Part shown: positions 28,023 to 60,540 of the stretch, piece by piece
How the letters are laid out: each line of letters starts with the position of its first letter
How positions within the stretch are numbered: the stretch's first letter is position 1
NCBI GenBank assembly: GCA_964016885.1
Contig: OZ024765.1
Location: 12,152,001-12,216,000, forward strand
DNA length: 64,000 nt
Direction: 5' to 3'
From: Eledone cirrhosa
Taxonomy: Eukaryota
Notes under the pieces: model-generated
Database searches by the model: none
What the model was told of the DNA's origin: nothing
The model's input: only the letters and a program-made list of their open reading frames with translations
Made by a program: the position numbers and the translations under genes

Positions 28023-28103
28023 GCTGTCTGAAGATTCATTTCTTTCCATTGGAAATTCTCTGGATTTCCAATCTTTTGGAATGATGAAACCGTCGGTAAC
28101 AGC
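28023..28103 (+). ncRNA. Type I hammerhead ribozyme with extended stem II, in dispersed repeat 27960-28180
   Basis: GCTGT-CTGAAGA-T TCATTT...ATTGGAAAT(tctctgg)ATTTCCAAT...GAATGA T-GAAA-CC GTC GG-TA-ACAGC. Second copy at 60461. Confidence 0.92.
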
Positions 28104-28526
28104 AATAGAACAGGTGATTATTTAAATCGTTTTTTAATTTATTTAGAGAATTATTTGATAACCGCTTGCTCCGCTACTTTTTATATACACACATATATAT
28201 ATCTACCTACCCACACATATATATATATATTATTCCATGTAAAAAAAGACAACATATCAAATGATTATCATGCAACCACTTTGATGCCTTTGAAATGCAC
28301 ATAACAGGATTATATATTAAACAGAGGATGTATGCATAAAACCGTCTCTCTACTTTATAATATATAAAAGAAATAGGAATTCGCTTCAAGCATAGCTTCA
28401 TACAATATGTATAAATATTTTGTATCTCCAAAGAAATACGGTTTTAGGAAGCCGTAGCTATCCAAACACCGGGGGGGGGGGGGCTAACGCCCTCTGGTGA
28501 TGTCCAGCAGAAGCAAGGGGGGGACA

Positions 28527-28570
28527 ACCGTCTATGCATTTCAGGCTTAACTGGCCTTCGACAGGACAGT
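28527..28570 (-). ncRNA. Type I hammerhead with variant core CUGUCGA, in inverted repeat 28500-28647
   Basis: Minus strand: ACTGTC-CTGTCGA-AGGC(cagttaa)GCCT-GAAA-TGCA-TA-GACGGT; palindromic stem III ATGCAT. Confidence 0.78.
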
Positions 28571-28704
28571 CCCTCCCACCGCTTGTGAAGGCCAGTTAAG
28601 CCTGAAATGCATAGACGGTTGTCCGCCCCCTTGCTTCTGCTGGACATATATATAAATCATAAAACATGTCTACAGAATCACAATATAAAATATATACTAT
28701 TTCC

Positions 28705-29197
28705 TCTCCCAATTAGCATAATTAACTATATAAAAATCGAATAGACCAGGCTATAAGAATGAGGCTTCTATGAAGGAATCTCCGACAAATAACCAAAACT
28801 AGTGCTTCGCGTCGGCCGTTGTGGAATATTTATCGAATATTTCGACAGCGTAATCGCCTAGATACAGTCAACTAAGCAGAATTAGGTTTAAAATAAACTA
28901 GGAGAAAATAGAATACATTTAAATACCTCTACCATGGTTTCGTCCGTGTTTTGAGTTTTCCAATAATTATGTAATAATTATATAAACTCAAGCGCCGGAT
29001 TCTTCAGGAAGCTCGCTCATATCTAGACATTAAATTTTCCAAAACGATCGCGCCAAGAATTCATTTCAAAATGGCTAAAAATCGTGACGTAGCCGCGGTC
29101 AAGTTGGAAGGTGTGTGGTAGTTGCTTACAGCTGGTGGCATTTTTGCTAGAAAGCACAGCACAATACAGTCAAATTTTTATCTCAACCTAGTGGGAG
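28705..29197. mobile_element. Possible non-autonomous TIR element
   Basis: Ends TCTCCCAATTAG / CTAGTGGGAGA are imperfect inverted repeats around a relatively CpG-rich interior; single copy in the window. Confidence 0.3.
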
Positions 29198-29324
29198 ATT
29201 ATTACATATAAAAGTTTTCATATATATATATACAATATTTATATATATATATATAATATTTATATATATATATAATATTTATATATATATATATACAGTA
29301 TTTATAAATATATATATAATATTT

Positions 29325-56342: not shown

Positions 56343-57008
56343 TTCTAAATTATATATCAACAGTCAATCAACAAGATCCCAGACCTCGTCAAATTGGACC
56401 GAGGAAACGATGTTTCCATTGTCTTTCCATTGCTGATACCATCTACAAGTCACATGTGAATCCAATTCTCTAACCACTCAGCCACGTGACTTCACCACAA
56501 AATATATATATATATATATATATATATATATATATATATATATATATATATATATATATAAATATATATATATATATATATATATATATATATATATATA
56601 TAAATATATATATAAATATATATATATATAAATATATATATATATAAATATATATATATATATATATATAAATATATAAATATATATATAAATATATATA
56701 TATATAAATATATATATATATATATATATATAAATATATATATATATATAAATATATAAATATATAAATATATATATATATATATATATATAAATATATA
56801 AATATATATATAAATATATATATATATAAATATATATATATATAAATATATATATATATATATATATATATATATATATATATATTTATATATATATATA
56901 TATATATATATATTTATATATATATATATATTTATATATATATATTTATATATATATATATATATATATATATATATATATATATATATATATATATATA
57001 TATATATC

Positions 57009-57266
57009 GCATGGAACAAACTATCTGCATCAGTTGTTAGCTGTCGGGACTCTGCATCCTTCAAAACCTCAATGCTTCCTGAAATTTGCCAACACTACAC
57101 CTGATATCCCCCCCTCCATACACACGTACACATGTATATCATGACTCATACACTGTTCATTTTCCTGACATTTTTACATTATTCTATGTACTATACATGC
57201 ACCTTTGATGCGTTGTAATGCACCTGAGCACTGTACACAATAATTTCATTATTATTATTATATTTT
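57009..57266 (+). mobile_element. CR1/L2-type LINE 3' fragment with (ATT)n tail
   Basis: [22 protein letters not shown] resembles the WNxLP..VV......FK C-terminal motif. Confidence 0.65.
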
Positions 57267-57361
57267 ATATACATGTACATATGGTTTCCAAAACATAGAT
57301 ACTTGTAAACTGTGTATGTGTTTTTGTGTATCATTAACTGTGTGTATGTCTTTATGTTTGT

Positions 57362-58310
57362 GCAGATATGTCTTTATATGTGAGTGTATGTCTTTATATG
57401 TAAGTGTATGTCTTTATATGTGAGTGTATGTCTTTATATATGAGTGTATGTCTTTATATATGAGTGTATGTCTTTATATGTGAGTGTATGTCTTTATATG
57501 TGAGTGTATGTCTTTATATGTGAGTGTATGTCTTTATATATGAGTGTATGTCTTTATATATGAGTGTGTCTTTATATATGAGTGTATGTCTTTATATATG
57601 AGTGTGTGTCTTTATATATGAGTGTGTGTCTTTATATGTGAGTGTATGTCTTCATATATGAGTGTATGTCTTTATATATGTGTGTATGTCTTTACATATG
57701 AGTGTATCTCTTTATATATGAATGTATGTCTTTATATATGAGTGTGTCTTTATATATGAATGTATGTCTTTATATATGAATGTATGTCTCTATATGTGAG
57801 TGTATGTCTTTATATATGAGTGTATGTCTTTATATATGAGTGTATGTCTTTATATGTGAGTGTATGTCTTTATATGTGAGTGTATGTCTTTATATATGAG
57901 TGTATGTCTTTATATATGAGTGTATGTCTTTATATGTGAGTGTATGTCTTTATATATGAGTGTATGTCTTTACATATGAGTGTATCTCTTTATATATGAA
58001 TGTATGTCTTTATATATGAGTGTGTCTTTATATATGAATGTATGTCTTTATATGTGAGTGTATGTCTTTATATGTGAATGTATGTCTTTATATATGAGTG
58101 TATGTCTTTATATGTAAGTGTATGTCTTTATATATGAGTATATGTCTTTATATGTGAATGTATGTCTTTATATGTGAGTATGTCTTTATACATGAGTATA
58201 AGTCATATACGTGAGTATATGTCTTTATATATGAATGTATGTCTTTATATGTGGGTGTATGTCTTTATAAGTATACATATGTCTTCATATGTGAGTGTAT
58301 GTCTTCATAT
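57362..58310. repeat. 20 bp minisatellite (tgagtgtatgtctttatata)
   Basis: Direct inspection. Confidence 0.95.
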
Positions 58311-60460
58311 ATATATAACTCTCTTGTAATCTCTACAAGGAGCCCACATTCATTCATTCACCTTCTGCTAGATAAGTGGTTTCATATGAAATCCCAACCC
58401 TTCAATAATTCCTGTACTTTTCAATGCTAATCAAAGACTATAAATTGTGTTTCTATGTTTTTCTTATATGTATATATATATATGTATATATATATATATA
58501 TATATATACTATATATGTGTACATATCTATATGTGTATGTGTATATATATATATATATATGTATATGTGTGTACACACACACACACACACACACATATAT
58601 ATATATATATACACTATATATGTGTGCATATCTATATGTGTATGTATGTATATATATATATATATATATATACATATATATATATATATATATACATATA
58701 TATATATATATATATATATACATATATATATATATATATATATATACATATATATATATATATATATATATATATATATATATATATATATATACATATA
58801 CATATATATATATATACATATATATATATATACATATATATATATATATACATATATATATACATATATATATACATATATATACATATATATACATATA
58901 TATATATATATATATACATATATATATATATATATACATATACATATATATATATATATATATATATACATATATATATACACACGCACACATGTGTATG
59001 CATGTTTGTATACATTACATCCAGAAAATGAGAGAAGAGAGGTAGAATAGATGGTGATAGACATTGCTAAGAAGCAGCTTTATTAGAATCAATGTCGATG
59101 TTTCAATCAGCAACAGTTAACATATATATTTGTGCTAAATGATTTTTCTTAAAGCCTCAACTAGCTTCAGACTGCAAGCAACATAAGGAATAAAAACTGA
59201 CAAACAATATAGAAAGAGAAAAATGAGACAAACAAACACACAAACAGTGTACGTCTCCACCTCACTTACCATTCATTCAAATCTTGGTAGATTTTTTAAA
59301 ATATTTGTTACATCATTCAACTGAAAGCAACAAGTAGGTTTATACTTGCTTTCACATAATCTTTCTCTATCTATCTATCTATCTATCTTGTAGGTTGAGG
59401 AAAAAGAGGAAGAGAGGAAAGGGGGTACAAACTCTTCGTACTCCTGGAGATGAGGGTTGCACATTTTTTTTTTCGGGGGTATGTGTTACCCATATGAACT
59501 GTCTCTCCCTATTGGGGAAAATCGACTAATTTTTTAAATTGCATTTGTGATAATATTTTACACGTTTTTATTGTATGTAAACTTCCCCCTTTGTATTTGT
59601 CCCCTTCTTTTGTGCCCCTGTGGCTAATAAAGAAATATATCTATCTATCTATCCATCTATCTGTGTCTAGTTATCTATCTATCGCCCATTTTTTCTTATT
59701 CTTGCTCATGTATCTATCTATCTATCTATCTCTTCATTAATCCATTCCATTTAAAGGTAAATAAATTTGTCTATATCCATCTCTCTCTCTCTCTCTCTCT
59801 CTCTCTATATATATATATATATATATATATATATATGTATATATGTATATATATATAAAACAAAGAAAGTTGGTAAGAAACCAGGTGGAGCATAACGCAC
59901 CAGGGAAGTCGATACTTAGGGTATTAGAGTTGGGTTAGTTCGGATCTAGCTGTCGAAACAGCCATCTTGGTCCTGACTCTTTTCCTATATATATATATAT
60001 ATATATATATATATATATATATATATATATATATATATATATATATATATATATATATATACATATATACATCAGCGAAAGCCGATGTGCTTATTCACAT
60101 GACTGCATCAACCAACCAAACTTCACTCATATATGAAAAAACAACCTGAGCCCCCCTTTTTTTGAAGGCAAATATAATAAAAACTTTGTAACGCGAACTG
60201 GCGCGAAATTTATTATACTTATTCACCAACCAGCCAAACACCAACCAGATGTGAGAAAAACCACAAACCCTCCATCTCAATTCTACTTTTGCAAAGCACA
60301 AGAACTGCAAAACCGGTAAAGGAACCAAATAAATATATTTAAAAAAAAAAAAGACTCCAGTTGCATTTTCGATTTCATCTTTTTTCCTTATACTTTCACT
60401 CGTGTAGGACGCGAGATATTAACTTACTATGAGGCTTTATACCTTTATAGTATGGAAATA

Positions 60461-60540
60461 GCTGTCTGAAGATCTAATTCTTTCCATTGGAAATTCTCTG
60501 AATTTCCAATCTTTTGATTAGTGAAACCGTCGGTAATAGC
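60461..60540 (+). ncRNA. Type I hammerhead ribozyme, second copy of the 28023 family (repeat about 60400-60625)
   Basis: GCTGT-CTGAAGA-T CTAATT...ATTGGAAATT(ctctg)AATTTCCAAT...GATTAG T-GAAA-CC GTC GG-TA-ATAGC. Confidence 0.92.

Follow-up and report, generated by a model that had tools for sequence, protein, structure and literature searches.

A 64,000-nucleotide stretch of the genome of Eledone cirrhosa (GenBank assembly GCA_964016885.1, contig OZ024765.1, positions 12,152,001 to 12,216,000, forward strand; hereafter the window, in whose own numbering positions are given) contains two hammerhead ribozymes of one family. Judged from their sequence, both lie in truncated copies, belonging to two subfamilies (A and B), of a non-coding tandem repeat with a unit of 457–490 bp, and this repeat fits the sequence definition of a metazoan retrozyme of the kind without long terminal repeats (non-LTR retrozyme). 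The reading preferred here, with a probability of roughly 0.8, is that successive source elements of this retrozyme changed the letters of the ribozyme stems while pairing was kept, likely as only templates that folded and cleaved themselves were copied on, probably by a reverse transcriptase (RT) of the Penelope type. The first-pass annotation of the two copies had proposed selection on the RNA fold in the elements from which they derive. This is supported by stem II differences that separate subfamily A (copy 1) from subfamily B (copy 2) as fixed characters and arose stepwise on a tree built of flanking sequence only, and further by pairing having been kept far more often than in mutations of single copies.

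That annotation had placed two hammerheads of one family, with the same core and the same helix III, at 28023–28103 and 60461–60540, and both can be seen directly in the letters. The features of the two copies are:

27771..28186, + strand: copy 1, subfamily A insertion, 5'-truncated and shorter than one monomer (415 bp), 97–99% to the tandem copy L002
28015..28019, + strand: GGAAA, predicted pseudoknot strand 5' of helix I in copy 1, invariant in 16 of 16 group majorities and exact in 174 of 193 copies
28023..28103, + strand: type I hammerhead of copy 1, with CUGAAGA, GAAA and GUA, U.U at the helix II base and palindromic helix III ACCGUCGGU
28036..28084, + strand: helix II of copy 1, with a TCATTT/GAATGA base, an internal loop containing TTTCC (28043–28047) and an 11-bp extension hairpin (28048–28072)
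60406..60727, + strand: copy 2, subfamily B insertion, 5'-truncated and shorter than one monomer, 92–95% to other B copies
60454..60458, + strand: GGAAA, predicted pseudoknot strand of copy 2, with its partner TTTCC at 60481–60485
60461..60540, + strand: type I hammerhead of copy 2, with a CTAATT/GATTAG helix II base and a private G.U in helix I

In both hammerheads a helix I of 5 bp leads into CUGAAGA and a U.U mismatch. Helix II follows, its base of 6 bp carrying an internal loop and then the extension hairpin of 11 bp; after GAAA come helix III, with 3 bp closed by a GUC loop, and GUA. Copy 1 has its helix I in GCTGT (28023–28027) and ACAGC (28099–28103) and the core CTGAAGA at 28028–28034; the mismatch T28035.T28085 is followed by TCATTT (28036–28041) pairing with GAATGA (28079–28084), and GAAA (28086–28089), CC-GTC-GG and GUA (28096–28098) lead to a predicted cut after 28098. 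The corresponding parts of copy 2 are GCTGT (60461–60465) and ATAGC (60536–60540), the core at 60466–60472, CTAATT (60474–60479) with GATTAG (60516–60521), and GUA at 60533–60535, with the predicted cut after 60535. Both copies carry the letters of the hammerhead core rule (C3-U4-G5-A6-N7-G8-A9, G12-A13-A14, A15.1-U16.1 and an NUH triplet). The G10.1-C11.1 closing pair of helix II is absent from the two window copies, which have U.U there, and is G-C in subfamilies C1–C4. Natural hammerheads are able to cleave with U10.1-U11.1 at this place (Perreault et al. 2011, PMC3088659), and the axolotl HHR_Amex2 has U.U at its helix II base (Cervera and de la Pena 2020, PMC7229834).

Homology between the copies exceeds the ribozyme, extending over 221 bp at 84%. 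Within the helix II base, 6 of the 12 positions differ, and the three double substitutions that had been read there as preserving pairing were confirmed: U-A/C-G, C-G/U-A and U-A/A-U, with both sides changed in each case (chance, as a rough two-sequence figure, 8e-4). The inner hairpin described for stem II is likewise real, being 11 bp long, and holds one more change, U.G/U-A, which had been missed. The reported G-C to G-U change of stem I is present, but it is no evidence of selection because it is private to copy 2: among 29 subfamily B copies the 3' strand of helix I is ACGGC in 20, ACAGC in six, and ATAGC (copy 2), ATGGC and ACTGC in one each. Decay of CpG sites was considered as the source of this change and rejected, CpG sites having 4–11 and other C/G positions 8–11 changes per 1,000 (A–B).

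The family was followed by pattern searches of the whole 3.0-Gb genome, using four non-overlapping core patterns and reversed patterns as controls. Exact core matches numbered 201, 160, 481 and 211, altogether 1,053, with none in the reversed controls, and nearly identical relatives of each window copy are numerous on other chromosomes. The alignment comprised 193 copies, two of 195 being left out as too short and long arrays being limited to two units per locus. The copies of B3, A1 and several of the C and E groups were picked by hand among the matches listed, and group sizes are therefore no measure of abundance. The tandem period is 442–491 bp, with one hammerhead per unit and a GC content of 34%; neither an RT or nuclease frame nor an LTR was found within the unit. 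The repeat occurs as partial tandems and inverted pairs, and the window copies are likely relics, because each is shorter than one unit and has one ribozyme.

The maximum-likelihood tree was constructed of 288 flank columns with the ribozyme masked, and included 50 copies, at most six per group, from the 94 that passed the filters out of 132. It nests the subfamilies in the order B, B3, A3, A2, A and A1, with ultrafast bootstrap values of 100 for B3+A3+A2+A+A1, 85 for A3+A2+A+A1, 100 for A2+A+A1, 97 for A+A1 and 100 for A1. Divergence among copies drops along the same ladder (0.040, 0.028, 0.026, 0.022, 0.020 and 0.006 from B to A1). Three of the groups have helix II bases in between those of the window copies: B3 has CTAATT/GATTGG (12 of 100 matches listed in one pattern search), A3 has CCAATT/GATTGG (six exact matches genome-wide), and A2, the state between A3 and A, has CCATTT/GAATGG. 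The nested tree and these in-between states give the order of the steps. Pair 2 went from U-A through U.G to C-G, the U.G state itself having been copied many times as a subfamily; next pair 4 went from A-U to U-A, and then pair 1 from C-G to U-A. An origin of B3 as a recombinant of B and A3 was ruled out, its upstream flank differing from A3 at five columns and from B at 37. Adenosine-to-inosine editing was also rejected as the source of the wobble: among copies that included few very young ones, and with shared variants dropped, A>G singletons showed no significant excess over T>C (1:1, 12:12, 22:15 with p = 0.07, and 36:47), and the fixed changes were 16:18.

On the path from B to A, pairing was kept in all six helix changes, compared with 46 of 147 singleton changes (Fisher p = 0.0013); the 46 include eight double changes, in part probably from small subfamilies that escaped sampling. 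When all 16 groups were considered, with the edges among the older C and E groups placed by hand from the distance matrix and thus approximate, double changes that keep the pair made up 9 of 33 subfamily-level changes and 1 of 107 within-group changes (p = 7e-6). The named structure, evaluated with 18 natural copies, had 91.1% of its cells paired; none of 500 shuffles reached as high, and the value was 36–48% when the structure was slid. Two-sided changes occur in the family in one pair of helix I, four pairs of the helix II base and two pairs of the extension, and also helix I covaries at the family level, with U-A, A-U and G-C at its pair 2.

Double changes of this kind could also arise without RNA selection, or with little of it, if one arm of the hairpin were copied from the other by template switching at the DNA or cDNA level, a mechanism known from hairpins of RNA genes (Monttinen and Loytynoja 2022, PMC8794818). 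The changes do cluster in the helix II base, where half of the positions differ between the window copies. Their distribution on the tree speaks otherwise: with each of the three changes on a branch of its own, a single event cannot explain the series. Pair 2, moreover, went through the U.G state seen in B3, the adjoining U.U and U.G never turned perfect, and inserted copies show hardly any double changes of their own (the 1 of 107 above). No subfamily half-way through the changes of pairs 1 and 4 was found among the first 100 matches listed per search, and on that account a short template switch may lie behind these two pairs. As an account of the whole series, template switching is nevertheless considered very improbable, and source elements selected for their fold are preferred.

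The predicted RNA structures bear on how such a ribozyme would work. Helix III, the palindrome ACCGUCGGU, gives -11.3 kcal/mol as a two-molecule duplex and +0.4 kcal/mol as a hairpin. RNAfold on the + strand gave z values of -2.6 for copy 1 and -1.8 for copy 2, and one natural 469-nt unit folded as a circle was predicted at -107.5 kcal/mol (z -2.7 against 40 shuffles). In the single-molecule folds, that of the circular monomer included, a pairing forms between CUGA in the core and UCGG in helix III. Such pairing is predicted to lock the monomer, and dimerisation would relieve the lock; covariation is unable to test it because the letters concerned were fixed by the search patterns.

Another predicted contact is a 5-bp pseudoknot joining the regions of helix I and helix II. 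Its two strands would lie immediately 5' of helix I (GGAAA) and within the helix II internal loop (UUUCC). Both are the same in every one of the 16 group majorities, with variable positions beside them; local pairing of UUUCC with the start of the extension hairpin would also be possible. Comparable strands were recognized in other hammerhead families, in cases that were chosen by eye once the pseudoknot had been suspected. GGAAAA/TTTTCC is retained in a related family. Of two unrelated hammerheads with long helix II, that of locus L141 has GAGAAT/ATTCTC at the equivalent places (control fraction 0.01), and that of a family at 28925–29012 of the window has TGAGCG/CGCTTG (control fraction 0.007, rising to 0.19 in another copy); one more copy of the latter family shows GAGT/ACTT, a two-sided change read by eye. 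The pseudoknot was not found in family F5 (L143) when this was examined.

It may also be asked whether the stems were kept for some other role, for example recognition by the RT or stability of the RNA, the ribozyme itself being weak or inactive. This would agree with the U.U at the helix II base, the weak helix III of the monomer and the inactive predicted fold, as well as with insertions that end at +88 or +193, away from the cut site. Low in vitro activity has been reported of Penelope minimal hammerheads (Cervera 2014, PMC4209133), and eight of nine elements were inactive in the study of Li et al. (2026, 10.64898/2026.07.22.740005). Yet the core positions are all intact in more than 1,000 copies with about 16 stem types, U10.1-U11.1 is compatible with natural cleavage in the cases mentioned above, and locus L070, a single case with 5 nt shared, joins two predicted cut sites exactly. 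This alternative is regarded as unlikely.

The 3' ends of the repeat that are joined to (TA)n fall mainly into two classes, at +80–89 in 40 and at +190–199 in 38 of 93 strands, with end sites +88 or +193 after the predicted cut site. The window copies represent one of each: copy 1, which is flanked by (TA)n on both sides, ends at +88 past its predicted cut site, and copy 2 at about +193, followed by a short (TA)n. Inverted insertions have one end of each class in 20 of 27 distinct cases, four others having an unscored end and three being misfits. The repeat, dispersed over many chromosomes, thereby shows insertion anatomy of the Penelope type, with 5' truncation, inversion, a one-sided tail and a microsatellite target.

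Directly upstream of copy 2 the window contains a remnant of such an element, which abuts the 5' end of the copy with no (TA)n at the fusion:

60124..60410, + strand: decayed 3' end of a Penelope element of the Neptune/Nematis type, with its minimal hammerhead damaged; 88.6% over 60240–60410 and 72% over 60124–60238

The candidate partner Penelope family (L210–L225, e.g. G000:C28:37353000-37361000) is young and autonomous, with an intact 775-aa frame consisting of RT, a CX4CXXC linker and GIY-YIG, and by the description of Craig et al. (2021, PMC8557442) it would be of the Neptune/Nematis type. Its 3' motif has 12,324 exact copies, its hammerhead is minimal, with a U3-A8 core, ACCGGU and GUA, and its ends joined to (TA)n also form two classes, +75–91 and +141–156 (22 of 28 rows). 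It is present in 16 of the 189 loci of the repeat and joined to it directly, without (TA)n, in five (window copy 2, L019, L070, L081 and L126). In L081 the Penelope tail replaces the repeat tail at the first end site. The junction of L070 lies exactly at both predicted cut sites, with five shared bases, and is the sole such case genome-wide. Fusion at the cut sites as a common product was accordingly rejected, a second match (L227) being a Penelope copy, and 22 loose reciprocal cut-site matches contained repeat sequence in none. Mobilisation of the repeat by a Penelope element of the Neptune/Nematis type is predicted from these observations.

A further alternative, discussed by Li et al. (2026), would be a satellite derived from a Penelope terminal repeat and amplified mainly by unequal exchange at the DNA level. 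Long homogeneous arrays do exist, a young 457-bp subfamily forming arrays of up to 19 units on one strand and nine on the other:

G000:C1:156425779-156438442 (L170, L171), opposite directions: inverted array of 19 + 9 near-identical 457-bp units, 13 kb

The units of this array are about one base apart from each other and three to five bases from those of other arrays, and among 57 Xenopus families 24 were homologous to known elements, 21 of these 24 being Penelope-like (Li et al. 2026, 10.64898/2026.07.22.740005). Such an origin is nonetheless the least probable of the alternatives, with only a slight chance of being correct: the copies are dispersed, show 5' truncation or inversion and have their 3' ends fixed at two positions joined to (TA)n, no locus was found with a unit attached to an open reading frame of its own, and between the repeat and the one Penelope family compared there was no similarity beyond (TA)n (best E 0.14). 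As a separate observation, a private variant is common to all units of the L170/L171 array, and a 12-base deletion makes the upstream hairpin shorter with pairing kept.

According to the preferred reading of copied retrozyme templates, tandem copies would be transcribed and the RNA cleaved after GUA, a reaction that the joining of two ribozymes by their palindromic helix III may favour, with helices I and II held by the putative GGAAA/UUUCC pseudoknot. The product would be a monomer, perhaps circular, with its core locked by helix III pairing, and would presumably be inserted at (TA)n through target-primed reverse transcription by the Penelope RT/GIY-YIG protein. Source selection would then follow, with only those templates whose RNA still folded and cleaved itself continuing to be copied into the genome. 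In a check for expression, contigs of uncertain kind from three runs of one sample gave no begin or end sites, which speaks neither for nor against transcription.

Several results weigh against this reading, in addition to the missing half-way states of pairs 1 and 4. As regards the ribozyme, no Rfam hammerhead model matched the region of either copy at E ≤ 10, likely on account of the long helix II, so that the identification stands on the core and the helix pattern; the invariance of the core and helix III was set by the search patterns; and the minimum-energy fold has the core paired with helix III and the active junction not formed. Cleavage was obtained in one of nine predicted retrozyme dimers (Li et al. 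2026, 10.64898/2026.07.22.740005). As regards covariation, changes from one paired state to another, taken alone, made up 22 of 33 subfamily-level and 52 of 107 within-group changes, which is not significant (p = 0.08), and a mismatch was entered or left in 11 of the 33. Older subfamilies have G.A, A.G or U.U mismatches in helix II and C.A in helix I. The pair-type measure, one of five used with the 18 copies, was not above the shuffles (368 of 500), and the pseudoknot shows no covariation within the family, its strands being invariant. As regards the partner, the lack of similarity between the repeat and the Penelope family compared counts here as well, and the fusions could be explained by deletion between neighbours with a common (TA)n target.

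A more far-reaching interpretation is put forward only tentatively, being more doubtful than probable. It takes the genome to hold a dated fossil series of one ribozyme lineage with about 16 stem types, from which compensatory evolution could be followed one change at a time, including a retrotranspositionally active wobble. The ribozyme would belong to a wider class with long helix II and pseudoknot, self-locked as a monomer and unlocked as a dimer, and its RNA would be copied by a sequence-unrelated Penelope RT able to jump between the cut ends of both RNAs.

The repeat shares with metazoan non-LTR retrozymes the non-coding tandem unit with one type I hammerhead each and no LTR (PMC7229834; 10.64898/2026.07.22.740005), and further the range from monomers to long multimers, the co-occurrence with Penelope and the U.U of the axolotl HHR_Amex2 (PMC7229834). 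Its unit of 442–491 bp differs from the expressed retrozyme circles of 170–400 nt (PMC7229834), and its helix II, lengthened with an internal loop and a hairpin of 11 bp, and its predicted base-paired pseudoknot are unlike the non-LTR retrozymes in the descriptions available. No subfamily ladder, fixed ends or fusions are described in the available parts of the two retrozyme papers (PMC7229834, 10.64898/2026.07.22.740005). With the hammerheads of Penelope elements the repeat has in common a 5-bp helix I, a long helix II and a palindromic helix III suited to dimers (PMC4209133), while the U3-A8 core variant of the partner element corresponds to that of Cervera and de la Pena (2014, PMC4209133). 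Unlike those hammerheads, the repeat is not attached to an open reading frame, and the order of changes and the propagated wobble are resolved here.

A base-paired contact between helix I and helix II, predicted here, would be shared with pseudoknot-stabilised hammerheads (PMC3088659; PMC11300833), such a contact being present in about 40% of the hammerhead set of Perreault et al. (PMC3088659). The one predicted here would differ from those of the Perreault and Zhan sets, as far as these were available, in that a strand 5' of helix I meets an internal loop midway along a long helix II; in the structure of Zhan et al. (2024, PMC11300833) a pseudoknot takes the place of helix II, whereas here helix II is kept. 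Both the repeat and its candidate partner share with endonuclease-positive (EN+) Penelope-like elements of the Neptune/Nematis group the 5' truncation, partial tandems, inverted copies, one-end tail and (TA)n targets (PMC8557442). Tail length differs, at about 105 nt for the repeat and about 65 nt for the partner, where Craig et al. (2021, PMC8557442) describe 30–40 nt, and unlike those elements the repeat codes no protein (PMC8557442).

Covariation among hammerhead families is already in print (Cervera 2014, PMC4209133), and the link to Penelope has been proposed by Cervera (2020, PMC7229834) and argued by Li (2026, 10.64898/2026.07.22.740005). A literature search, with most subscription papers and bioRxiv supplements outside its reach, found nothing on the family, its subfamily ladder, its pseudoknot and self-lock or its Penelope fusions. 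New here are the resolved ladder with a propagated wobble, the predictions of a pseudoknot and a self-lock, and the fusions with a named partner. Whether stems change through a wobble or in a single step is usually inferred from species trees; in this case the intermediates have left dozens of dated copies in one genome, and because these survive and the activity of a catalytic RNA is measurable, the fitness valley at every step can be put to the test. For the partnership of retrozymes and Penelope that has been proposed, the family supplies a candidate enzyme by name, together with fixed ends and junctions at which the two are fused. The predicted self-lock would offer an answer to what keeps the circles of retrozymes from self-cutting, as asked by Cervera (2020, PMC7229834).

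Several other hammerhead-bearing repeats were observed in the window and in the loci compared. The unrelated family mentioned above occupies 28641–29220 on the - strand, with a type I hammerhead of long helix II at 28925–29012 that has palindromic helix III ACCAUGGU and GUA; its relatives L115/L116 and L036 (74–81%) have covarying stems and a candidate pseudoknot. Two more families of long-helix-II hammerheads, with palindromic helices III ACTGATCAGT and ACTAATTAGT, were found at L004:1956 (- strand) and L141:2333, respectively. Inverted back-to-back pairs of a short hammerhead (CTGATGA ... GAAA CAGTTCTAGTCCTG TA), with few bases between the copies, are located at 4002–4098 and 24814–24916, the latter between (TA)n tracts. 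Helix III is palindromic and rich in (TA) in two motifs that resemble type I hammerheads, at 23434–23498 and 61703–61759, and their relatives have a covarying helix II in many of the loci compared. At 28500–28650, between two of the hammerhead-bearing repeats, lies a near-perfect palindrome of about 150 bp, richer in GC. Finally, the - strand has a stop-free frame of 862 codons at 29353–31938, which presumably resembles the endonuclease/reverse transcriptase of long interspersed nuclear elements of the RTE type.

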